Assembly (NCBI GenBank): GCA_017395105.1 | Contig: JAFPWD010000038.1 | Location: forward strand, 20,795 to 84,794 | Source: Clostridia bacterium | Lineage (GTDB): Bacteria; Bacillota; Clostridia; Christensenellales; CAG-138 | Direction of reading: 5' to 3' | DNA length: 64,000 nucleotides | The notes under the pieces: model-generated | What the model saw: the letters and a program-made list of their open reading frames with translations, nothing else | Databases searched by the model: none | What the model was told of the DNA's origin: nothing | Made by a program: the position numbers and the translations under genes | Part shown: positions 19,267 through 52,825 of the stretch, one piece after another | How the letters are laid out: each line of letters starts with the position of its first letter | How positions within the stretch are numbered: the first letter of the stretch is position 1

Positions 19267-21294
19267 TTATTTTCGTGTTCTTCCCCTTGCTTTTCTGCGG
19301 CTTCCGGGCATGCCCGGCTTGATAGAGGAGGGCTTTTTCCTCTCACCTTCGCCCCTGAGCCTGTAAAGCTCATCGCGCAGCTTGGCAGCTGTCTCAAACT
19401 CAAGCTCCATAGCCGCCTTCTGCATCTGCTCGGTTATGAGAGCGATCTTTTGTTCAAGCTCTTCGTCGCTCATTCCCGATGCGGCATCCCTTGCTTCGGT
19501 CGATATCTCAATTATATCGTAAACCGCCTTCTTAACGCTTTGGGGCACAATGCCGTGCTCCTCATTGAAAGCAAGCTGCTTGATTCTTCGGCGGTTGGTC
19601 TCATCAATGGTGCGCTGCATGGAATCGGTGATAGTATCGGCATACATGATAACGTAGCCGTCCACGTTTCGTGCGGCTCTGCCGACGGTCTGTATCAGCG
19701 AAGTGGTCGAGCGCAGGAACCCTTCTTTATCCGCATCGAGTATTGCCACGAGCCCGACCTCGGGAAGATCGAGGCCCTCGCGAAGAAGGTTTATGCCAAT
19801 GAGCACGTCGAACTCTCCGAGGCGAAGATCGCGGATTATCTCCATTCGCTCGATCGTCTGAATATCCGAATGCATATAGCGAACGCGAATGCCTATGGAA
19901 TCCAGATGCTCTGTCAGCATCTCAGCCATGCGCTTGGTCAGGGTCGTTGCAAGAACTCGATAGCCTTTTTCGACGTTTTTATTTATCTCGGAGATGAGAT
20001 CGTCTATCTGACCCTTCACGGGACGAACGAAGATCTCGGGATCGACCAGGCCGGTTGGCCTGATTATCTGTTCGGCGATATTGCTTGCCCTTGAAAGCTC
20101 GTACTCTGCGGGCGTTGCGCTGACACAGACGAGTTGCTTGAGCCTTTGCACAAATTCATCGAATTTCAACGGGCGGTTGTCGAACGCGCTCGGGATGCGG
20201 AAGCCGTATTCCACAAGTTCGGTCTTTCGCGCCTTGTCGCCGTTATACATGGCGCGAATCTGAGGTATCGTTGCATGGCTTTCGTCGATTATCGTAAGAA
20301 AATCATCTCCGAAGAAATCCAAAAGCGTATACGGCGGCTGTCCGGGCGCTCTGCCATCGAAGTATCGCGAATAATTCTCGATACCCGAGCAATAGCCGAT
20401 CTCGCGGATCATCTCCATATCGTATCGAGTGCGCTGCTCGAGCCGCTGCGCTTCAACAAGCTTATACTGCGCTTTGAGCTCCTCGACTCGCTCGAGCATA
20501 TCCTCCTCGATCTGCGCAAGCGCGGAAGCAATCTTATCCTTGCCCGCAGAATAATGCGTTGCGGGAAAGATAACGGCGTGGGAAAGAGAATTGATCGGCA
20601 CACCCGTAACCGCGTTTATATCGGAAATCGCCTCGATCTCATCGCCGAAGAACTCGATCCTGATAGCTCTATCGGCAAAATTCATCGGGAACACCTCGAT
20701 AATATCGCCGCGAACCCTGAAATTGCCTCGAGCAAACTCTATATCGTTGCGCTGATACTGTATTTCAACAAGTCTTCTGATAAGCGCATCCCTGTCCATC
20801 TCTGCTCCGCGGCGGATAGAGATGCTCATGCGCAAATATTCTTCGGGATCGCCGAGAGCATAGATGCAGGAAACCGAAGCAACTATGACCACATCCCTTC
20901 GTTCGTTCAGCGAGCAGGTCGCGCTGTGCCTGAGCCTGTCTATCTCCTGATTGATATCGGCGGTCTTTTCGATATAAGTATCGGATGAGGCAATATAGGC
21001 CTCGGGCTGATAGTAGTCGTAATACGAAACAAAATACTCAACGGCGTTATTCGGAAAAAACTCGCGAAACTCGGAGCAGAGCTGTGCTGCAAGCGTTTTA
21101 TTATGCGCAATAACAAGTGTTGGCTTCTGAACGCGCTCTATGAGCTTTGCCATGGTGAAGGTTTTTCCCGAGCCTGTAACGCCGAGAAGCACCTGCACCT
21201 CGTCCCCTTCAAGCACGCCCGATGCAAGCGTTTCGATAGCCTGCGGCTGATCGCCATGCGGCTCAAATGGTGAAACGACCTTGAACTTGCCCAT
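19267..21294 (-). CDS. uvrB: Excinuclease ABC subunit B
   Basis: It has 'GDQPQAI', '[12 protein letters not shown]', helicase motifs, and the C-terminal UVR domain '[15 protein letters not shown]'. Confidence 0.98.
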
Positions 21295-40075: not shown

Positions 40076-41863
40076 TCATTTAATCAGATAGAAGCTGTTC
40101 TGCGCATCATGCAGCTTCTTATACTCGCCGCCAAGCGCGATAAGCTCATCGTGCGAGCCCATCTCCACTATGCCGCGCTCATCTATCACGGCAATCTTAT
40201 CGGCGTTTCTGACCGTGGAAAGCCTGTGCGCGATAACGAGCGTGGTCCTGCCCTTGCTGAGTCGCTCAAATGCGGCGGTTATGCGCGCTTCGGTTGCGGA
40301 GTCGAGCGCACTGGTAGCCTCATCAAGAATCAGTATGGGCGGGTTTTTCAGAAATATCCTCGCTATCGAAACGCGCTGCTTCTGTCCGCCCGAAAGCGTT
40401 ATGCCGCGCTCGCCAACGACAGTGTCGTATCCGTCGGGCATCCTCATGATATCATCGTGGATCTCGGCAGCGATGGCGGCTCGGACTATCTCCTCATCGG
40501 TGGCATCGATCCTGCCGTAGCGGATATTGTCCTTGATGCTGGCGGCAAACAGGAATACGTCCTGCTGAACTATGCCGATATTCCGGCGAAGCGATGCAAG
40601 AGTAACACTCTTGATGTCATTCCCGTCCACAGTGATGCTTCCGTCAACAGTTTCATAGAAACGTGGAAGCAGATGGCAGAGCGTTGTCTTACCGCCGCCA
40701 GAGGGGCCGACCAAAGCAACGGTCTCCCCTGACTTTATATGCAGGCTGATGGTTTCAAGCACGTTGCGCGGGGTCTCGTCGTCGGTTTGATAGGCGAACG
40801 TGACGTTATTGAAGTCGATCTCACCCTTAACCTCCTTTAGCTCGATTGCGTTCGGCGCATCCTCTATTTCAGGCTCGGTATCAAGAAGCTCGGTGAATCT
40901 CTTGAAGCCCGCCATGCCCATGGCGTATTGCTCGGAGAAGGCGGCAAGCTTTCGGATGGGGTTGGTGAAGGATGAAACGTACAGCAGGAAAACTATCAGT
41001 GTGGTCTGATCCATCCTGCCGCGCATGATGAGAAAGCCGCTGACGGTCAGCACCAGAACGCCCATGATGGAGGTGAAAAACTCCATGCCCGCATGGAAAA
41101 GACCCATGGTTTTATAATAGCGGCGCTTGGATTTGATAAAGATGCTGTTGCCCTTTTCAAACTTTTCTATCTCGTAGTTTTCGTTCGTGAATGCCTTTGC
41201 AACGCGCGCGCCGCTTATAGAGGACTCGATATCCGCATTGATTATCGCAACGCCCTCCTTGACCTTGCGCGATGTGCGGCTCATGCGGGTTCTAAGCTTC
41301 ATAACAAAAAGCATGAGTATAGGCACGGTGAGAATAAGAACGAGCGCAAGCCGCCATTCGATGAACAGCATCGCAACGAAGGCACCAAGGAAGGTGACTA
41401 TTGAAATGAACACATCCTCGGGGCCGTGGTGTGCAAGCTCCGTAACGTCGAATAGGTCGTTTGTGCAGCGGGAAAGAAGCTTGCCCGTCCTCGATTTATC
41501 ATAGAAGCTGAAGCCGAGCTTTTGAAGATGGGAAAATACATCCCTTCGCATATCGGCTTCAATATTAACGCCGAGCGTATGCCCAAGATAAGTAACGATG
41601 AAGGTCGCAAGTGTGCGCAGCAGATACATTCCGAAGCATATTGCCATAAGTATAAAGAACGGAGCATACTTCGGCGCATCCGGGGTCAGATAGTCGTAAA
41701 GTGCTTTTCTTGAAATGAGCGGGTACGAGATATCAACCGCGGAAATGAACAACGCACAGGCCATATCGGTCATGAAAAGACCCATGTGGGGCTTGTAGTA
41801 TGAAGCAAAACGCGACAGTGCGCCTTTTTTGTTCTTCTTAGGAGCATTTTCCATGTTCATCAC
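40076..41863 (-). CDS. ABC transporter, fused permease/ATPase (MsbA/multidrug-exporter type)
   Basis: There are six predicted N-terminal TM segments. It has Walker A 'GPSGGGKTT', signature 'LSGGQKQR' and Walker B 'ILILDEATSALD'. Confidence 0.9.
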   Translation of the reverse strand: MMNMENAPKKNKKGALSRFASYYKPHMGLFMTDMACALFISAVDISYPLISRKALYDYLTPDAPKYAPFFILMAICFGMYLLRTLATFIVTYLGHTLGVNIEADMRRDVFSHLQKLGFSFYDKSRTGKLLSRCTNDLFDVTELAHHGPEDVFISIVTFLGAFVAMLFIEWRLALVLILTVPILMLFVMKLRTRMSRTSRKVKEGVAIINADIESSISGARVAKAFTNENYEIEKFEKGNSIFIKSKRRYYKTMGLFHAGMEFFTSIMGVLVLTVSGFLIMRGRMDQTTLIVFLLYVSSFTNPIRKLAAFSEQYAMGMAGFKRFTELLDTEPEIEDAPNAIELKEVKGEIDFNNVTFAYQTDDETPRNVLETISLHIKSGETVALVGPSGGGKTTLCHLLPRFYETVDGSITVDGNDIKSVTLASLRRNIGIVQQDVFLFAASIKDNIRYGRIDATDEEIVRAAIAAEIHDDIMRMPDGYDTVVGERGITLSGGQKQRVSIARIFLKNPPILILDEATSALDSATEARITAAFERLSKGRTTLVIAHRLSTVRNADKIAVIDERGIVEMGSHDELIALGGEYKKLHDAQNSFYLIK

Positions 41864-45091: not shown

Positions 45092-45188
45092 GTCCAAACG
45101 ATATATTAGTTGTTTGCTATTGCTTTTTCGCCGCAAATGTTGTAAAACAGAATAAGTTATTATGCCAATAGGCAAATTGGAGGTTAAA

Positions 45189-45770
45189 ATGGATTTTATC
45201 GTTGAAGTATCCGCACGCCACGTGCATCTGACTCAAGAGCATGTTGAGATCCTTTTCGGCAAGGGTCACGAGCTCACCTTCGACCGTCCCCTTTCCCAGC
45301 CCGGCCAGTTTCTGAGCAAGGAAAAGGTCACCATCAAGAACGGCGATAGAAAGATCGAGCGCGTTTCCATTCTCGGACCCGTCCGCAAGGCTTCGCAGGT
45401 CGAGGTAAGCAAGACCGACAGCGTTGCGCTTCGCGCAGAGGGCTTCATTCGTGAGAGCGGCGATCTTGCAGGTACCGCCCCCATCGAGATCGAAGGACCC
45501 GAGGGAAGCGTTCAGCTTGAGGAAGGCCTCATCATCGCAAAGCGCCATATCCACATGACTCCCGAAGCCGCAGAAGAAGCCGGTCTCAAAGATAAGGACG
45601 TAGTCAGCGTTGCGGTCAACACCGAGGACAGAAAGACCATCTTCGGCGACGTTGTGGTTCGCGTTTCCCCGAGCTTCGCGCTCGCCATGCATATCGACAC
45701 CGACGAAGCAAATGGCGCAAACGTTCCGAGAAACGGATGTCAGGGTCATATCGTTTCCGTTGAGTTCTAA
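45189..45770 (+). CDS. pduL: Phosphate propanoyltransferase / phosphotransacylase PduL
   Basis: It has the duplicated PduL motifs 'VSARHVHLTQEHVEILFG' and 'IIAKRHIHMTPEAAEEAGL', plus 'AMHIDTDEANGA'. The ATG follows GGAGGT. Confidence 0.9.
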   Translation: MDFIVEVSARHVHLTQEHVEILFGKGHELTFDRPLSQPGQFLSKEKVTIKNGDRKIERVSILGPVRKASQVEVSKTDSVALRAEGFIRESGDLAGTAPIEIEGPEGSVQLEEGLIIAKRHIHMTPEAAEEAGLKDKDVVSVAVNTEDRKTIFGDVVVRVSPSFALAMHIDTDEANGANVPRNGCQGHIVSVEF

Positions 45771-45783
45771 TGATTGATGTCAC

Positions 45784-45817
45784 AAAGGACGGGCAATACC
45801 CGTCCTTTTTCGTTTTC
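45784..45817 (+). terminator. Intrinsic terminator after pduL (also downstream of the convergent HprK-like gene)
   Basis: AAAGGACGGG-CAAT-ACCCGTCCTTT is followed by TTCGTTTTC. Confidence 0.75.
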
Positions 45818-45873: not shown

Positions 45874-46632
45874 TTACTCCACAATGGAATCACGGGCGAA
45901 TTCGGCCGCATCGATCTGCATATTGCAGGCAAGCGCATAAACGGGCACGGTAAGAACCAGCTCCTGCAATAGGCCGAGCGCAACGGAAGCGAGTCTCGGA
46001 TCGGTCGGGATGTAGATGTTGGTTGAAAGGCTGATCAGCGCATCTAAAGGGGAAAGCCGAGCTATGGAATTGGTTTCACTTCGGCTGAGCACACAAATGG
46101 CTCCTATCGGCGACTCAATGTTGTTTCCGAGATGTTCTTTTCCGTTCCAAATGCTTCCGCATGCAGAAGCGCCGTTTTTATCGATGCGTATGAGCGGCTG
46201 ATCGCCGCTTATGATCCGCACTTCATTACCATAGGCCTTGCGCCAAAGCCGCGCATGCGTGCTCTTGCCCGTGCCGCTCGGAGCGGAAAACAGATATGCT
46301 TTCTTTCGGTAAGTGAGCGAGGCAGCATGAAGCGTTAAAACGTTTTTCGTCAGAAGCCAATCGGAAATATCCTGATGAATAAGAAAGAAACCCGACGGAT
46401 TCCCGTTCCCGAACGGATGCCCGTTTATCAGGTTTCTTTCGATGGTAACAGTATGCTCTATTTGATCTGGTGCGCTATTTGCGAGATACTTTTTAAAGTA
46501 TTTGCGGTTCAGGGTCGATCCATAGGAACGTACAGCAATAATATGACCGGCAAGGCAAATTGTCAGTTGATCGTACTTTCCACTATTATTCTTGGTCGGC
46601 TTCGATCCGCTCACGAAAAAACCTATCAGCAA
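45874..46632 (-). CDS. HPr-kinase-related P-loop protein (RiPP-cluster associated)
   Basis: 252 aa. It has 'LHAASLTYRKKAYLFSAPSGTGKSTHARLW' (a Walker A in an HprK C-domain-like context). The TTG start overlaps the precursor-peptide stop by 7 nt. It is the last gene of the operon. Confidence 0.7.
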   Translation of the reverse strand: MLIGFFVSGSKPTKNNSGKYDQLTICLAGHIIAVRSYGSTLNRKYFKKYLANSAPDQIEHTVTIERNLINGHPFGNGNPSGFFLIHQDISDWLLTKNVLTLHAASLTYRKKAYLFSAPSGTGKSTHARLWRKAYGNEVRIISGDQPLIRIDKNGASACGSIWNGKEHLGNNIESPIGAICVLSRSETNSIARLSPLDALISLSTNIYIPTDPRLASVALGLLQELVLTVPVYALACNMQIDAAEFARDSIVE

Positions 46633-46889
46633 ACAGAGGGAGTCGGAGTATCGTAAGCTCCGAACAGGATCTGCCCCAAACCAAACTGAATGTTATTGTC
46701 ATAGTTACACGAGCTATCGGTCCTGCATACATCCTGAGTGGGGCAGCCTATTCCCTGCGTGGGGCAACCCAAACCCTGCGTGGAGCATATAGGAGCACCG
46801 CTTAAGGATGATGAGTTAGTGAACAGCACAGAATCTACTGCGATGTTTATGAGCTTTTGCTCTGCGCGTACATAACGCTTTTTTTCCAT
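46626..46889 (-). CDS. Candidate RiPP precursor peptide (87 aa) with Cys-led heptad repeats
   Basis: A strong AGGAGGT RBS lies 9 nt upstream of the ATG. The leader-like N-terminus is followed by 'ICSTQGLG CPTQGIG CPTQDV CRTDSS CNYDNN ... TPTPSVC'. It sits between the rSAM/SPASM gene and the HprK-like gene. Confidence 0.75.
   Translation of the reverse strand: MEKKRYVRAEQKLINIAVDSVLFTNSSSLSGAPICSTQGLGCPTQGIGCPTQDVCRTDSSCNYDNNIQFGLGQILFGAYDTPTPSVC
46728..46787 (-). repeat. Three tandem ~21-nt coding repeats (TGC [TC]CC AC[GT] CAG G..) encoding C-[SP]-T-Q-[GD]-x-(G)
   Basis: By direct reading, the units are 46767-46787, 46746-46766 and 46728-46745. The shared cores are CCCTGCGTGG[GA]GCA, and CCTGAGTGGGGCA on the + strand. 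Confidence 0.85.
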
Positions 46890-46926
46890 AGTTGTTTTAC
46901 CTCCTGAAACATGAGATTAATCGATA

Positions 46927-48273
46927 TTATAGCACTTTATTCTCTAAAGTCAATAGTTTTTTTACGATCATCAAATATGCATTCCTTCTGCAATCTCTAA
47001 GCATGGAGGGGCAGAAAGCACCTTGAGTGCATTCGGGCAGATAAACGCATTGCAGGCATTCGGGGCATTTTTTCTCTCTAAGGTTATCTTCAATGAACCT
47101 GCGCCGCGGCTCCGACTCATTTTCATAGTCGAACAGACTGCCGATTTTTGCTTCATCCACAAGGTGCTCGCAGCAAAAGAGATCTCCGTTCGGGGTGATG
47201 ACAGAAGAACCGTTCGGAGTATCGACCATGCAGCGGTGAGTGCGCAGTCTGCCGGCGAATTCTCCGGCAAGCATGCCGAGTGCCTTAAGCTTTTCCTGAA
47301 GTTCTATCAAACGGGAATACAGGCGGTCGTTCGCTTCATCGGATATCCGGGAACCGGGGCTCGCAAACATATCGAAGGGATAGATCGAGATACGCTTATT
47401 GCCTTTGAATACCTCTGCAAGCTCATCGGTAAGCAAAAAGAGCTCATCAACATTGTTTTCATCGGCATTCAGTCTGAAATTGACAGCAGCGCCAAAATCG
47501 GTAAGCGCCTTTGCCGCATCAAGCGCGGCGGTATAATGATCGCGATCACGATCAACGTAAGCCTTGCGCTTATGGTATTCGCATTTTCTGCCGTCAAGAG
47601 TTATCTGAGCAGAATTTACGTGCCATTGCTTGACCGCCTTTTCGGCAAGCTCGCGAGTCATAAGCGATGCGTTTGTAACTATATCAGAAACGAACCCAAC
47701 GCCGTTATCATTCAGGCCGGCAATTATCCTGTCGATCACGCGCTCGGCAACAAGAGGCTCACCGCCAAACCAGCGAATGGAGATTGCTCCTTCTGTTTTT
47801 GTTTTAAGAATGTACTTAACGGTGGCATCCGCCGTTGCATCGTCCATGGTTTTATACTCGATGCCGTTTTCAAAGCAATAAAAGCAGCGGGCATTGCAGG
47901 CCGTTGTTGGAAGAATAACAAAGGAGCCGTGCTTTTTCGTGTCCTTAGGCGAAAGCAAATGCAAAATCTTTATTGCCGAAGAGAAAAGAGCAGCCTCATT
48001 TGCATCGGAACGCACTATAAAGCGCGATCCGATGAGCTCATCGATCGTGCCGTTATCGCCGGTGTAAACAAACTCATGGGGTTCCGAAAAGAGCTGCATC
48101 AGTTCCTCGGCATCGATAAGCTGTCGGGTGAAGGTGTTGAAAACGCGGGAAGCGGAACCGAGCCTGACGGGTAGCGCAAATAAAGACGGACGGCAAAGCG
48201 TGCCTAAAGGGGGCAGCTTGCCGTCTCCTATTGCTGACATCACGTTCCGATCGGGATGTAAAAGTGTTTTCAT
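46927..48273 (-). CDS. Radical SAM / SPASM-domain peptide-modifying maturase
   Basis: It has 'ILPTTACNARCFYCFENG' (CxxxCxxC) and 'WFGGEPL'. The C-terminal auxiliary-cluster cysteines are 'HRCMVDTPNGSSVITPNGDLFCCEH' and 'KKCPECLQCVYLPECTQGAFCP'. An ATGA overlap couples it to the upstream PqqD-like gene. Confidence 0.88.
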   Translation of the reverse strand: MKTLLHPDRNVMSAIGDGKLPPLGTLCRPSLFALPVRLGSASRVFNTFTRQLIDAEELMQLFSEPHEFVYTGDNGTIDELIGSRFIVRSDANEAALFSSAIKILHLLSPKDTKKHGSFVILPTTACNARCFYCFENGIEYKTMDDATADATVKYILKTKTEGAISIRWFGGEPLVAERVIDRIIAGLNDNGVGFVSDIVTNASLMTRELAEKAVKQWHVNSAQITLDGRKCEYHKRKAYVDRDRDHYTAALDAAKALTDFGAAVNFRLNADENNVDELFLLTDELAEVFKGNKRISIYPFDMFASPGSRISDEANDRLYSRLIELQEKLKALGMLAGEFAGRLRTHRCMVDTPNGSSVITPNGDLFCCEHLVDEAKIGSLFDYENESEPRRRFIEDNLREKKCPECLQCVYLPECTQGAFCPSMLRDCRRNAYLMIVKKLLTLENKVL

Positions 48274-48536
48274 TCTTCAAACGCGCCTGCTTTACGAAGA
48301 TTATCGATGACCATTGCGATATCCTCACGCATTTCGGCTTCATCGCCATCGAATTCTTCCTGAAGCTTCCTGAGGATCCCCTCCTCGTCGGTATCCTCGC
48401 TAAGGCAGTCGATGATAAATTTTGCTGTGGGATTGGAGCGAAGCATTCCGCGGAAAGCATTAGCCTCATCCGGCGCAAAAACAATTACGCTGTCTCCGTC
48501 TATCTCTACAACGGGCAGATCGTTTTTCAGTTTCAT
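48270..48536 (-). CDS. PqqD-family RiPP recognition element (RRE) protein
   Basis: 88 aa. '...VIVFAPDEANAFRGMLRSNPTAKFIIDCLSEDTDEEGILRKLQEEFDGDEAEMREDIAMVIDNLRKAGAFEE' has typical PqqD length and pattern. An AGGAGAG RBS is present. Confidence 0.75.
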   Translation of the reverse strand: MKLKNDLPVVEIDGDSVIVFAPDEANAFRGMLRSNPTAKFIIDCLSEDTDEEGILRKLQEEFDGDEAEMREDIAMVIDNLRKAGAFEE

Positions 48537-48591: not shown

Positions 48592-48620
48592 ATATTAACA
48601 CACTCCCCCGTGCTTGTCAA
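48592..48620 (-). promoter_or_regulatory. Near-consensus sigma-A promoter for the RiPP operon (-35 TTGACA, 17 nt, TGt-TAATAT)
   Basis: On the minus strand, TTGACA is at 48620-48615 and TAATAT at 48597-48592, with TG at -15/-14. It lies about 55 nt upstream of the PqqD-like ATG. Confidence 0.6.
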
Positions 48621-48719: not shown

Positions 48720-49775
48720 ATGAATGATACAAAACCGTATTTCTCGGTCATCCTTCCCGTATACAACGGCGCTCAGACCTTGAGCAGGGCTATCGTGAGT
48801 ATTCTTGCGCAAACTTTTTCAGATTACGAATTGCTTGTTATAGAAAACGCATCCGAGGACAACAGCCTTGATATAGCAAAAGCATACGAAAAAAGCTTCG
48901 ATAAGGTTCGTGTTTTTCACTCTCGGCAGAAGGGCGTTTCCAAGGCGAGAAACATAGGTCTTGATAATGCTTCCGGCGAATACGCTGTTTTCCTCGATGC
49001 GGATGATTTTTATATGCCGAATGCGCTCAAGACCATGCGTGCCGCGATCGAGGATGAAGACCCCGATATTCTTATAGCCGCGTTCACCAACTATGCAAGC
49101 AACGAAAGCGAAAGAAGAGTTCGCGCAAACGGGCGCGACCTGTTTCTGGCGATGCTCGACCCCCTGAGATACTATTCTCGCATAGTGGACGGAAACGAGG
49201 TTAACGAGTTTTTGCTCAGGCATCAGTGCGCCAAGGCTTACAGGCGCAAAATGCTGCTCGATTCGCAGGTTCGTTTCAACGAGGCTTGCTCGATGTACGT
49301 TGACCTTATCTTCAACGAAGCGGCATATTCCTCATGCACAAATGCTGTGTTGATCTTCAAAAAGCTTTATCAGTACAACCACGTTTCCGGCTCCATTGTC
49401 AATCGCACAGGCCCCGCTTTTATCAAGGATGCCGTAGCTGCGTTCGGGGTGCTCGTTTCTCAGCTCGATTCGCTCGACGGCGAGCGCAGTGATGCCGTAA
49501 TCTTTTATGCATTCATGGTTATAATGCAAATGCTGAAGGTTCAGGCAAATGCTCCTATAGAAGCGAGCAATTCTATGCTCGAAGCTTTTTTAAGCTCGGT
49601 TGATGCGCAAAGAGTTATATGCTCCGTCACCGATCGTGAGCTTCATCCGAACCCCGCTGTAAACGATCAGCTTCGATGCATACTCAATATGCTTACCAAT
49701 AATGATATTCCAGGCGTGCTGACTCTTTTGAGCAATGCAGGCAAATCCCGCGCAAGGAGCAAAAAGAATGAATGA
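48720..49775 (+). CDS. GT2-family glycosyltransferase (soluble, 351 aa)
   Basis: It has 'FSVILPVYNGAQTL', 'IENASEDNS', 'ARNIGL' and 'FLDADDF' (DxD). Confidence 0.85.
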   Translation: MNDTKPYFSVILPVYNGAQTLSRAIVSILAQTFSDYELLVIENASEDNSLDIAKAYEKSFDKVRVFHSRQKGVSKARNIGLDNASGEYAVFLDADDFYMPNALKTMRAAIEDEDPDILIAAFTNYASNESERRVRANGRDLFLAMLDPLRYYSRIVDGNEVNEFLLRHQCAKAYRRKMLLDSQVRFNEACSMYVDLIFNEAAYSSCTNAVLIFKKLYQYNHVSGSIVNRTGPAFIKDAVAAFGVLVSQLDSLDGERSDAVIFYAFMVIMQMLKVQANAPIEASNSMLEAFLSSVDAQRVICSVTDRELHPNPAVNDQLRCILNMLTNNDIPGVLTLLSNAGKSRARSKKNE

Positions 49776-51312
49776 GCCTAAAATCAGCGTAATATCGCCC
49801 GTGCATAATTCCGAGGAGTATCTGAAGCGCTGCGTGGATTCTATACTCAGCCAAACGCTTAGCGATATTGAAGTAATCTTCATAGACGATGCGTCCGAGG
49901 ACGGTTCCTACGATATACTTAAAAGCTATGCCGACTCCGCCCCCCGTGTTTTGATAATAAAGCTTGATAAAAACATAGGCGCGGGCGGCGCGCGCAATCT
50001 TGGCATCGAAGCGGCGCGCGGAAAATACCTTTCATTCGTAGATTCGGACGATACGATCGCGCCCGATTTTCTTGAGCTGCTGTATGCTAAAGCCGAGGAG
50101 ACCTCAGCCGATATTATTAAAGGCTCCTGTTTCGAGGTGTTTTCAAACGATCTCGATTCAGAATTCAGCTTGCAGAATATGCGGCGCCAAAACAGTTTTA
50201 TCAAAAAAGCGATGGAATCCGGCAAGAACACCTGCGTATTCTTCTACAATAGGCATTTTTCTGCCATCTATCGTCATGCTTTTATCGATAAACATAGTAT
50301 TCGCTACGGAAATACCATCGTTGGAGCGGACAGCATATTTCTATTAAAGACCGCAGTGCTTTCCGAATCCTTTGTATTTGAGCCCTCGGCGCGATACAAC
50401 TATTATCATAGAGCGGCATCTCAATCGCTCATCATATCTCAAGAACGCTATGAGAGCAGCAGTGCATCGCTGAAGGAACAGTTTGATTTTCTTGGAAACG
50501 CCGCCATAAAGCCCGAATCTATTTTGAGAGTTGCAAATCGCAGGCTAAGATTCGGACTTAGAATTCATTCTTATCTTCTCTTCTACAAGTATCACGGTAT
50601 CGATGCCGAGGCATACGCGCAAAAGCTGTACGAGATGGCAAGCGGCTTCAAATATGCTGATAAGCTCGGCGCCAAGGATTATGCAATATGCGTTTTTTTG
50701 AGCTCGAACGGCTCCGAGAACCTCTCTATGCTGGGCATGTCAAGCTCATTCGATGATGAACTATACGTTCAACTCGCCAATTTCGAGCGCCTTGCAAAGC
50801 ATATTGTCGATGCTTCCGCTCAGCAGGATCGGGCAATCGATTATCTTACAACAGTCATCATCCACATGCGAAAAAAGCTTGTATTTCGCGCACGCGGCGA
50901 GGTGCGCAAATTCGATCAACGGCTCATCAGCGAGATAATCGATGCGCTTTCGTGCCTGAACACTCCTGAATTGCTCCCCCGCCTTCCCTTCGATGTTATA
51001 GCCATTGTTGAATATAAAGCGGATCTGCCTCCGCTCATTCACATTAGTTCCAAGATCAATTCCTTCACTGACATTGTTTCTCTCCTGAGCAAAACGGTGG
51101 ATCTGCTTTCCGAGCATCCCAATGCAGCTTCGGAGTACTATGATTTTGCGATCAAAATTTACAAGAAGCTTTTGCTTGCTTCCAACTCTTCTATTATAAA
51201 AAGAGACAAGCAGTTTATCACGGCTATGGCCAAGTTAGCTCTTGCCGCCGATTCGCTGAACTGCTCCTTAAGCAGAAAGAAACTAACGGAGGTCTGTCGT
51301 AATGCATCCTAA
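49768..51312 (+). CDS. GT2-family glycosyltransferase with a ~280-aa C-terminal non-GT domain (paralogue A)
   Basis: It has 'ISVISPVHNSEEYL', 'IDDASEDGS', 'ARNLGI' and 'YLSFVDSDDTIAPDFLELLY'. The ATG follows AAGGAG and overlaps the previous gene by 8 nt. Confidence 0.85.
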   Translation: MNEPKISVISPVHNSEEYLKRCVDSILSQTLSDIEVIFIDDASEDGSYDILKSYADSAPRVLIIKLDKNIGAGGARNLGIEAARGKYLSFVDSDDTIAPDFLELLYAKAEETSADIIKGSCFEVFSNDLDSEFSLQNMRRQNSFIKKAMESGKNTCVFFYNRHFSAIYRHAFIDKHSIRYGNTIVGADSIFLLKTAVLSESFVFEPSARYNYYHRAASQSLIISQERYESSSASLKEQFDFLGNAAIKPESILRVANRRLRFGLRIHSYLLFYKYHGIDAEAYAQKLYEMASGFKYADKLGAKDYAICVFLSSNGSENLSMLGMSSSFDDELYVQLANFERLAKHIVDASAQQDRAIDYLTTVIIHMRKKLVFRARGEVRKFDQRLISEIIDALSCLNTPELLPRLPFDVIAIVEYKADLPPLIHISSKINSFTDIVSLLSKTVDLLSEHPNAASEYYDFAIKIYKKLLLASNSSIIKRDKQFITAMAKLALAADSLNCSLSRKKLTEVCRNAS

Positions 51313-52825
51313 AATTTCGATAATAATACCCGTGTACAACTCGCAAAAATATATTTGCGCCTGTATCGACTCGATACTTGCACAATCGTTCACCGATTTT
51401 GAGCTTATCCTTATTGACGATTGCAGCACGGACGGTTCTGCGCGGATCATCGATGAATACCGCGCACAGGATGACAGGATCCATATCATCCACCTTGAAA
51501 ATAATTCAGGGCAGGGCTATGCGCGAAACGTCGGCATCGACAGCGCAATGGGGGAGTATCTTTCCTTCATTGATTCGGATGATATCATTGCTCCAGATTT
51601 CTTTGAGCTTCTTTATAAAAGAGCTGTTGAAAGCGGCGCCGAGATCGTAAAGGGACTCGGCTGTGTCGTTCATAAGGACAGCTCCATAAAAGATACGGAC
51701 AAGCACGCCTTCAAGGAGGTCAATCATGCTATACGGCAGTATCTTATCGGTAAGAGCCCCCGCCCTTTCTGTTTCTACGCAGAGCACTGGAGCGCGATAT
51801 ATAAGCGCGATTTTCTGAATGAGCACGGTATACGCTACGGCTTATCCAGAGTGGGGCAGGACACAACCTTTCTTTTGAAGGTATGCGCATATTTCAGGAG
51901 TATCGAGATCGTTGATGATGCTGTTTACTACTATATCCAGCGCAGCGGCTCAGTTATTCACTCATACGATTCAAAGCGTTTCCGTGCGCGGCTTCACTCA
52001 CTTGAGGAACAGATAGACTTTGCCAATACCGTGGAAGCCGCTGCAGCGCTTTTCCTTTCCCATATCCAAAATAGTATTAACAATTTGCTTGCGCATCATG
52101 CATATCTGAGCGTTCGCATTCCCGAAGCTGAGTCGGCAGCCTTGCTTGAGCGCCTGTATGCTGCCTTGCTCAAATACCGCTATATGCACGAAACGTCGTA
52201 TCGGGACTATTCATTGCGTGCTTTTATGGAGTCAAACGGTCATGTAAATATAAGCTTGAAAGGGTTCATCGTCGGCAATGAGGATAATACCGAATGGCAG
52301 CTCATATCGTTTAACAGATTTATTGACTACATAAACGCCGATGAAGCTTTTTTTGATCAGGGCTTGGAATATTTGGGAGCATCTATACCGTTTATGTTCC
52401 TCATGGCATTCGCAAATCATCCCAACGCCGCTCCCGAAATGTATATGGAGTTTGCCTCCAAACTGTGCAGCATCCTGATGCGTTTCAAGCAACCGGACGC
52501 CTTATGCCGCAAAATGCCGATGTGCGATTATCTTGTCAGATACGGAGCCGATATCTTTCCCCACGGCTGCAGAAAGTATGCCGATGCGTATCTCAATTAT
52601 TTCTATAGTATCACCGATCAGTTATCGAGGATAAACGCATTGCTCAGGGAGCATCCGGGTGCCGCAAAGTGTTTCCATATCGGAAAGCTGCTCACGGCAC
52701 ATGGGTTCAGAATTCTGAAAATGCTGCGATCCGCCGACAAAAAAGCAGTTGATCCGCTCCTGACCGCGTTTGCTTCAGAGGTGGCGAAATTTGACGCACT
52801 GAACAACGCAATAGAAACGAGATAA
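51302..52825 (+). CDS. GT2-family glycosyltransferase with a ~280-aa C-terminal non-GT domain (paralogue B)
   Basis: It has 'ISIIIPVYNSQKY', 'IDDCSTDGS', 'ARNVGI' and 'YLSFIDSDDIIAPDFFELLY'. The C-terminal 'NHPNAAPEMYMEFASKL' matches 'EHPNAASEYYDFAIKI' in paralogue A. It overlaps the previous gene by 11 nt. Confidence 0.85.
   Translation: MHPKISIIIPVYNSQKYICACIDSILAQSFTDFELILIDDCSTDGSARIIDEYRAQDDRIHIIHLENNSGQGYARNVGIDSAMGEYLSFIDSDDIIAPDFFELLYKRAVESGAEIVKGLGCVVHKDSSIKDTDKHAFKEVNHAIRQYLIGKSPRPFCFYAEHWSAIYKRDFLNEHGIRYGLSRVGQDTTFLLKVCAYFRSIEIVDDAVYYYIQRSGSVIHSYDSKRFRARLHSLEEQIDFANTVEAAAALFLSHIQNSINNLLAHHAYLSVRIPEAESAALLERLYAALLKYRYMHETSYRDYSLRAFMESNGHVNISLKGFIVGNEDNTEWQLISFNRFIDYINADEAFFDQGLEYLGASIPFMFLMAFANHPNAAPEMYMEFASKLCSILMRFKQPDALCRKMPMCDYLVRYGADIFPHGCRKYADAYLNYFYSITDQLSRINALLREHPGAAKCFHIGKLLTAHGFRILKMLRSADKKAVDPLLTAFASEVAKFDALNNAIETR

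Follow-up and report, generated by a model that had tools for sequence, protein, structure and literature searches.

A 64,000-nucleotide stretch of the genome of a Clostridia bacterium (GenBank assembly GCA_017395105.1, contig JAFPWD010000038.1, forward-strand positions 20,795 to 84,794; Christensenellales, CAG-138), called the window below, was analysed around an open reading frame (ORF) at 45874-46632 on the minus strand. Its product is very probably a dedicated maturation enzyme for a peptide made by the ribosome and altered after translation (RiPP) and would belong to the ScmC/LppK family. On balance, it appears to act as an ATP-using serine kinase on the precursor peptide encoded directly upstream, guided by the complex of a PqqD-type protein with the precursor leader. 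The serine at the leader–core junction (S26, or S26-28) is put forward tentatively as the acceptor, by analogy with the kinase LppK.

Homology to the kinases of linear polyphosphorylated peptides

Linear polyphosphorylated peptides (LPPs) were described by Popov et al. (Nat Commun 2026; PMC13381572). The core genes of their clusters are lppA (precursor), lppK ('HprK kinase'), lppB (RiPP recognition element, RRE), lppS (SpI-like peptidase), lppD (MsbA-like exporter) and lppN (nucleoside triphosphate (NTP) transferase). When an LPP cluster was expressed in B. subtilis, the precursor received one to four phosphates, which persisted on the product, and deletion of lppK abolished phosphorylation (PMC13381572). 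The site used by LppK was core Ser3, the S3A, S3T and S3Y variants being unmodified, and the LppA leader, with the consensus YxxPxVLxHQxIxFETxxS, was cut after Thr-1 (PMC13381572). The 'HprK kinase' class was assembled in that work by RODEO from TIGR04249 (67), TIGR04352 (65) and TIGR04355 (11), and of the two kinases at the locus of the characterized LppK, one is of the TIGR04249 type (table in PMC13381572). Radical S-adenosylmethionine (SAM) enzymes are not mentioned in the LPP paper, and the few Clostridia SpI clusters were left unanalysed there (PMC13381572).

The same three models were matched by the family of the window protein. For a direct comparison, LPP clusters were located in 29 of 201 Paenibacillaceae genomes by a search with the published LppS, and six were fetched; identity to the published LppS was at most 54% (L165). 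In the complete loci (L165, L169 and L170), the genes stood in the order precursor, kinase (K, with a product of 261-290 aa), PqqD, LppS homologue, ATP-binding cassette (ABC) gene and NTP_transf_5, and the Paenibacillaceae precursors were of the published type (YxxP...FET..S; e.g. MQKPAYHAPKVLKHQPIRFETSQS in L165). All six K genes matched the hidden Markov model (HMM) of the window family at 1e-16 to 1e-24 (56-83 bits, five of them at 74-83). Comparison of a 40-sequence family alignment (A1) with the six K genes in HHalign gave 99.7% (E 1e-26) over 216 columns, corresponding to window residues 20-241, and in BLASTP the window protein matched the K gene of L165 with E 1e-10.

Kinases from lasso-peptide clusters, each cluster confirmed by genes for an Asn-synthase-like cyclase and a transglutaminase-like B2 protein, were used as the comparison set. 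These scored 34-50 bits against the family HMM and aligned with the window protein over 35 residues. True HprK_rel_A members were sought in 401 genomes of the phylum and none was above the cut-off, the matches being lasso-cluster kinases. Since the alignment extends over 216 columns with the LPP kinases, against 35 with the lasso kinases and 30 with HPr kinase/phosphorylase (HprK/P), the window protein is placed in the LppK/ScmC family as a full-length, divergent member, the lasso kinases being more distant and HprK/P more distant again.

As a separate observation, two of the fetched loci, L167 (9384-9744, minus strand) and L168 (10140-10325, minus strand), encode a FET..S leader followed by a Cys-containing core (e.g. 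AFSNCTPCTVDGKDYYLCPV); no radical SAM gene was detected by the model within the 15 kb fetched.

Protein family, fold and conserved residues

The ORF encodes 252 aa from a TTG start and contains LFSAPSGTGKSTHARLW; its coordinates and its Walker A motif, SAPSGTGKST, were verified against the ORF list and the sequence. A search with the product returned 1,466 homologues at E<=1e-3 (best P0001, 246 aa, 99% identity, E 3e-159), and a profile of 40 homologues returned 19,133 representative clusters (50%-identity clusters) at E<=1e-3, 2,993 of them at E<=1e-30. Because of these 1,466 homologues and 19,133 clusters, the ORF is a real gene and not a chance ORF.

A Pfam scan of the window protein with a model set lacking PF27840 gave no match. 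Precomputed annotation places PF27840.1, a family named ScmC, on P0001 and on 120 of 120 homologues among the matches listed. In NCBIfam, the window protein was matched only weakly, by HprK_rel_B (E 4e-4), HprK_rel_A (E 5e-3) and ScmC (TIGR04249; E 0.026). Over 40 family members, ScmC matched 37, HprK_rel_A 31, HprK_rel_B 21 and hpr-ser 7, with E 1.9e-9 as the best TIGR04249 score among these relatives. The single sequence matched nothing in a search of the PDB sequences, and the best match of the profile there, ATP-dependent phosphoenolpyruvate carboxykinase (PEPCK), was not significant (E 0.14). Nothing was found in the literature on ScmC, SynChlorMet or PF27840.

The protein was divided into an N-terminal beta/alpha subdomain (residues ~20-95) and a P-loop domain of PEPCK/HprK fold (~95-252), with His102, Ser119-Thr125 (SGTGKST) and Asp144 as key residues. 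Invariant in A1 were Y49, His102, F115, A117, SGTGKST (119-125), W130, D144, P146, G164 and P175. In a 50-sequence alignment of the C-domain (A3), the range of which does not include Y49, the invariant positions were F115, A117, the P-loop, D144, P146 and His126, and His102 and W130 were conserved in at least 90%. In the window protein, P0002 and P0003, the first Asp of NDDKP, which is 90% conserved, is replaced by Gly (Gly143 of the window protein; ISGDQP); the second Asp is kept. This first-Asp position is judged to tolerate change, because DE is found there in the LppK-type proteins and GD in a Bacillota relative (L150).

The full-length AlphaFold2 model had a predicted local distance difference test (pLDDT) score of 90.7, and its best 50 PDB matches in Foldseek were all PEPCK, both ATP- and GTP-dependent enzymes being included (E 1e-8, TM about 0.5). 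When residues 95-252 were modelled by themselves, the model (pLDDT 94.2) matched PEPCK and HprK/P interleaved: the HprK/P of L. casei (1kkl_B) ranked fourth (E 4e-5, TMq 0.52, TMt 0.50), and further HprK/P matches were 3tqf, 1kkm, 2qmh, 1jb1, 1knx and 1ko7. From the models, the C-terminal domain is predicted to have the PEPCK/HPr-kinase P-loop fold.

By sequence, the family profile was aligned by HHalign with 27 Clostridia HprK/P at 78.6% (E 1.7e-5), the 30 aligned columns lying close to His102 and the P-loop, and with six ATP-dependent PEPCK at 92.9% (E 3.7e-7) over 36 columns; in a low-confidence extension of the alignment, NDDKP of the family falls on LVADD of HprK. The initial annotation had described an HprK C-domain-like protein. 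Its fold component is borne out by the match to 1kkl_B, and profile similarity to HprK/P is indeed detectable, but the similarity in sequence spans only about 30 residues. Neither PF07475 nor TIGR00679 matched the window protein in the Pfam and NCBIfam scans, and HprK/P of the same class are 290-340 aa long with an N-terminal domain, which the 252-aa window protein does not have. The protein is assigned to the superfamily of HprK/P, which we take to be the 'PEP carboxykinase-like' superfamily of SCOP, and not to the HprK/P family.

HPr and phosphotransferase system genes, said in the initial annotation to be missing nearby, are indeed not among the window neighbours. The source assembly is a 1.9 Mb metagenome-assembled genome (MAG) that is 68% complete, so the lack of any match to PF00381 (HPr) or PF07475 (HprK C-domain) in it is weak evidence. 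HprK was present in 51 of 61 genomes of the same class.

Translation start of the ScmC gene

The junction between the precursor gene and the ScmC gene (46612-46632, minus strand) was read base by base as ...GTT TGC TGA TAGGTTTTTTC GTG AGC GGA, and two start codons are available there, as first annotated. A TTG at 46632 (TTG-CTG-ATA...) overlaps the TGC-TGA end of the precursor gene by 7 nt and gives 252 aa. A GTG at 46614-46612 is codon 7 of that frame, follows the TGA stop (46626-46628) after an 11-nt spacer and gives 246 aa (45874-46614). No further ATG, GTG or TTG lies ahead of the conserved core, which begins at about residue 20. The GTG at 46614 is probably the start and the TTG overlap not a real one, because homologues begin at the GTG position (Val7; e.g. 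relatives at 56-86% identity, and P0001 with its 246 aa) and because residues 1-16 have a pLDDT below 50 in the model.

In all four related loci (L001, L130, L131 and L132), the ScmC gene was called from GTG. The gap between the TGC-TGA of the precursor gene and this GTG is +25 nt in L001 and +12 nt in L130 and L131; in L132 the called GTG overlaps the precursor gene by 14 nt, and a second in-frame GTG lies 13 nt past the stop. No strong Shine-Dalgarno (SD) sequence was found at any ScmC start in the window and these four loci. The only SD-like element before the window GTG is AGG, 7 nt upstream; the precursor gene has AGGAGG. We infer that the precursor and ScmC genes form a sub-unit of the operon in which ribosomes leaving the precursor would go on to make a small amount of the enzyme. 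Of the coupled translation proposed in the initial annotation, the coupling itself fits the GTG 11 nt past the precursor stop and would run through that codon, and the overlapping TTG, which had been seen as its basis, is probably not a start.

The window clade and its precursor peptides

In a FastTree phylogeny of ScmC, the window protein formed a separate long branch together with those of L001 (66% identity), L130 (47%), L131 (48%) and L132 (48%), and association with radical SAM genes was seen in several unrelated branches. Both L001 and L130 retain the gene order PqqD, radical SAM/SPASM, precursor of 77-82 aa, ScmC. On the short contigs L131 and L132 (4.5 and 2.8 kb), at least radical SAM, precursor and ScmC are present, with PqqD nearby on the other strand in L131. 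No peptidase, exporter or NTP transferase adjoins the ScmC operons of these four loci, and no lyase or cyclase was found in the window operon or the related loci.

The window precursor (46626-46889, minus strand; 87 aa) consists of the leader MEKKRYVRAEQKLINIAVDSVLFT, a junction T24-N-S26-S-S and a core with Cys repeats; that it is Ser/Thr-rich around the Cys units, as first annotated, was confirmed. The leader M(E)KKxYVRAEAxLINIAxExTLFT(A/N)S, in which Y6, A9, L13, F23 and S26 are invariant, is common to all five clade precursors. They all end in Cys, with an Asp/Glu 7-8 residues before it in four and 12 in L001, and this terminal Cys could be a cross-link partner for the radical SAM enzyme. 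The Ser/Thr patches that had been pointed out in the initial annotation behaved differently from one another: TDSS and DTPTPS vary among the five precursors, whereas the junction Ser (NSS; S26) is conserved. By analogy with Thr-1 and Ser3 of LppA, the likeliest conserved acceptor, if there is one, would be the Ser right after the conserved Thr. A kinase of the C-terminal Ser, as in lasso peptides, was considered and rejected, since Cys is the last residue of the clade precursors and the wider Clostridia family has variable C-termini. The precursor peptides matched no family in Pfam or NCBIfam.

Gene neighbourhoods and fusions in the wider family

Matches to the family numbered at least 595, most of them in Clostridia MAGs of rumen and gut origin; 80 loci in as many species genomes were fetched and annotated with HMMs built from examples, and counts are given over 84 loci. 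Usually a short peptide comes first and is followed by ScmC, PqqD, a protein of about 146 aa, then an ABC exporter and NTP_transf_5, the 146-aa protein resembling S24/S26 signal peptidases (Peptidase_S24 E 3e-6; archaeal signal peptidase I of NCBIfam E 1e-9). PqqD was at most 7 kb from ScmC in about 60 of the 84 loci, and a radical SAM gene was present in 14 only. The leader KYExPEMEVIxFExEDVITTS is common to the peptides of 22 loci; the conserved leader positions of the wider family are Tyr (22/27), Asp (24), Thr (21) and Ser (22). C-terminal parts of the peptides are highly variable and often acidic, and the cores beside radical SAM genes contain Cys. The window leader MEKKRYVRAEQKLINIAVDSVLFTNS matched the leader model of the wider family with E 2e-16.

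Natural fusions join ScmC to PqqD (L032, residues 254-323, PqqD E 1.8e-12; P0131), to NTP_transf_5 (P0217), to a C-terminal radical SAM domain (P0221), to an N-terminal one (P0202, P0212 and P0252) and to an N-terminal GT8 domain (P0230). The peptide Ser kinase of the initial annotation is supported by these PqqD, radical SAM, NTP_transf_5 and GT8 fusions together with the full-length homology to the LPP K genes.

A composite locus (L150; G237:C1:1152000-1171000) was observed in a complete 2.9 Mb Bacillota genome. Its lasso part comprises NTP_transf_5, an Asn-synthase-like cyclase, an HprK-like K, PqqD and a transglutaminase-like B2 and is directly followed by PqqD, a radical SAM gene, an 81-aa membrane protein, a ScmC-family protein (33% identical to the window C-domain) and an ABC gene; a third PqqD, paired with a ScmC-like gene, lies further on. 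The 81-aa ORF ahead of the ScmC gene was tried as a precursor and rejected, the product being a hydrophobic membrane protein.

Proposed function and alternatives

We infer ATP use, phosphoryl transfer to the precursor, the acceptor residue and the order of steps in the following scheme, as well as the coupled translation. PqqD would bind the conserved precursor leader (MEKKxYVRAE..LINI....LFT) and present the leader–core junction to the kinase, which would use ATP to place one or several phosphates on the Ser just after the Thr (T24|N-S26-S-S), comparable to the action of LppK on Ser3 of LppA. Separately, the Cys-rich core would be cross-linked by the radical SAM/SPASM enzyme, and the leader would have to be removed by a peptidase encoded elsewhere.

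Two other contigs of the assembly carry genes of related types. On contig C4 (33143-34950), a gene for an 87-aa peptide, a PqqD 52% identical to that of the window and a 176-aa S26-like peptidase (identity to the published LppS 29%, E 2e-7) form a second, partial module that adjoins a 1,334-aa repeat protein; this peptidase could remove the leader of the window precursor in trans. On contig C52 (4039-5265), an isolated NTP_transf_5 gene (PF14907; 408 aa), the only copy in the assembly, has no RiPP genes around it.

Several observations weigh against a peptide kinase of the LppK type. The window protein is far under the cut-off of every curated NCBIfam model (19.5 bits vs 200, and 13.9 vs 125 for TIGR04249), its matches to HprK_rel_A and HprK_rel_B included. 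At the acidic position of NDDKP, the LppK-type proteins have DE and the window clade Gly-Asp. The link to LppK itself runs through the K genes of Paenibacillaceae clusters, whose LppS reaches no more than 54% identity to the published protein. The window leader has Y6, F23-T24 and S26, but Ala stands for the Pro of YxxP, the Tyr-to-Thr spacing is 18 vs 15 in LppA, and the conserved Ser is at +2 and not at +3. The window operon has no SpI-like peptidase, exporter or NTP transferase in cis, as judged from the ORF list, Pfam and NCBIfam.

A scaffold, which the initial annotation had offered as an alternative, would be a non-catalytic or ATP-gated protein joining the PqqD-leader complex to the radical SAM/SPASM enzyme with no transfer of phosphate. 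It is unlikely. The natural fusions to radical SAM domains in both orders and to PqqD, the Gly143 that replaces a 90%-conserved Asp in the window clade, and the lack in this clade of an NTP transferase for which a phosphate could serve as handle are in its favour; they are set against the fact that His102, the P-loop in its entirety and Asp144 are strictly conserved over a very large family, the catalytic requirement for the homologous LppK in phosphorylation (PMC13381572), and the scarcity of radical SAM genes among family members (14/84 loci).

It is slightly less probable still that the enzyme is a PEPCK-like kinase or phosphotransferase of a small molecule (a sugar or an acid) that would serve as donor for glycosyl or nucleotidyl transfer to the peptide. 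The PEPCK structures that head the matches of the full-length model, the higher HHalign value for PEPCK (92.9%) than for HprK/P (78.6%), the GT8 and NTP_transf_5 fusions, and the family 2 glycosyltransferase (GT2) genes that are syntenic in three clade loci would be accommodated by such an activity. However, the most constant partner, fusions included, is the peptide-binding PqqD; LppK acts directly on a peptide Ser (PMC13381572); and the large N-terminal substrate domain of PEPCK is missing (252 vs about 525 aa).

Transient phosphorylation of Ser/Thr for elimination to dehydroalanine or dehydrobutyrine, or regulation of maturation by a pyrophosphate-dependent kinase/phosphorylase, is improbable, more so than a small-molecule kinase. 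Ser, Thr and Cys are abundant in the core, and HprK/P, itself bifunctional, would offer a parallel. The 'activation for elimination' of the initial annotation is weakened by the absence of a lyase or cyclase from the operon and related loci; moreover, the phosphates of LPPs persist on the product (PMC13381572), and the Ser/Thr patches vary within the clade. A true HprK/P of carbon catabolite control, despite the shared His, P-loop, acidic motif and C-domain fold, is regarded as effectively refuted by the tests of family membership (no PF07475 or TIGR00679 match, 30 aligned columns, no HprK N-terminal domain), the gene moreover sitting in a RiPP operon in an assembly (68% complete) in which no HPr was found.

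Operon layout and neighbouring genes

Four minus-strand genes are tightly packed: the PqqD-type RRE (48270-48536; 88 aa; Pfam E 2.4e-11), the radical SAM/SPASM peptide maturase (46927-48273; 448 aa), the Cys-repeat precursor and the ScmC ORF. The stop codon of PqqD overlaps the start of the radical SAM gene (ATGA). The window PqqD had no significant similarity to LppB in BLASTP or to the PDB sequences, and the radical SAM/SPASM protein was under the cut-off of every named NCBIfam family (best TIGR04463, 124 bits vs 525). The operon promoter was placed at about 48592-48620. A near-consensus sigma-70-type promoter (46926-46953, minus strand; TTGACT-16 nt-TATAAT with TG extension, 11/12 matches by pattern match only) sits within the 3' end of the radical SAM gene, directly upstream of the strong ribosome-binding site of the precursor (AGGAGG), and suggests that the precursor and ScmC genes have a strong transcript of their own besides that of the operon promoter.

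The other window neighbours of the ScmC ORF are PduL, GT2 genes, GAPDH and an ABC transporter. The pduL-like gene (45162-45770, plus strand) is convergent with the ScmC gene, and between them lies a GC-rich hairpin of 10 bp (45784-45808) with a T-run on the plus strand only, for which reason it is read as a clear terminator for pduL and a doubtful one for the RiPP operon. The ABC exporter (40076-41863) is 4 kb from the operon.

Three GT2 genes (48720-52825, plus strand) are transcribed divergently from the operon. Two or three such genes stand divergently beside it in the window, L001 (1-3905) and L130 (1058-3588), between which ScmC is 47-66% identical, and may be linked to the operon. With the GT8-ScmC fusion P0230, this adjacency may mean that the peptide is glycosylated. 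No such claim is made here, because the three GT2 proteins gave only generic GT2 matches in NCBIfam and SunS-type ones were weak (E 1e-4 to 7e-7, far under the cut-off). A cooperation of the kinase, the radical SAM/SPASM enzyme and the syntenic GT2 proteins, giving a cross-linked core, a (poly)phosphorylated junction Ser and a glycosylated phosphate or nearby Ser/Thr, is doubtful. If it did occur, it would yield a cross-linked phospho(glyco)peptide of hybrid kind, for which no RiPP type has been described so far, and the GT2 genes would stand in for the NTP transferase of the LPP clusters.

Comparison with known systems

To our knowledge, phosphorylation is rare in ribosomal natural products, and peptide kinases of HprK fold have been described only for lasso peptides (2016) and LPPs (2026). 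By the present assignment, a very large unannotated family (~19,000 clusters, mostly from gut and rumen Clostridia) would be placed with the LPP kinases, which suggests that the gut microbiome may commonly produce phosphorylated, cross-linked peptides. The compact four-gene operon yields a testable prediction: Ser26-28 of the 87-aa precursor would carry a +80 Da series that is sensitive to phosphatase.

With HprK/P and ATP-dependent PEPCK, the window protein has in common the C-domain fold and the succession of His, GxSGxGK(S/T) and an acidic pair; it differs in N-terminal region, substrate and genomic context and has no family-level sequence match to either. The lasso kinases PadeK (paeninodin) and PsmK (pseudomycoidin) are likewise P-loop enzymes of the HprK superfamily. 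They phosphorylate a Ser of a RiPP precursor, sometimes repeatedly, PsmK working with the nucleotidyltransferase PsmN; such kinases, known since 2016, are often paired with an NTP transferase of the PF14907 type (PMC8498205). In contrast to the LppK-type proteins, their similarity to the window protein is limited to about 35 residues at the P-loop (34-50 bits vs 74-83), and their target is a C-terminal Ser, whereas the window clade precursors end in Cys. Neither a lasso cyclase (Asn-synthase-like) nor a B2 protease (transglutaminase-like) was detected by Pfam in the window operon.

The bioinformatically defined ScmC family (TIGR04249/PF27840) comes with a cassette of precursor, ScmC, PqqD-like protein and radical SAM/SPASM enzyme, which is also the make-up of the window operon. 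The window protein is not an equivalog (13.9 bits vs 125), and its operon has one radical SAM gene where the cassette has two (ScmE and ScmF).

With the LPP clusters, the window operon shares a discrete PqqD-type RRE and a leader that ends in Phe-(x)-Thr with a conserved Ser soon after, and the gene order of the wider Clostridia family is that of lppA-K-B-S-D-N. It differs in the addition of a radical SAM/SPASM enzyme and a Cys-rich, Cys-terminated core, in having no SpI-like peptidase, MsbA-like exporter or NTP transferase in cis, in a leader without the Pro of YxxP and with another spacing, in the acidic motif GD instead of DE, in its separate long branch and in its occurrence in gut and rumen Clostridia instead of Bacilli. 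What was known is the catalogued family (Pfam, and ScmC of NCBIfam) and the biochemical role shown in 2026 for the LPP clusters of Bacilli; what is new is a clade in which an LppK-type kinase, as assigned here, is combined with an RRE, a radical SAM/SPASM enzyme and a Cys-terminated precursor, beside GT2 genes and without the peptidase, exporter and NTP transferase of the LPP clusters.

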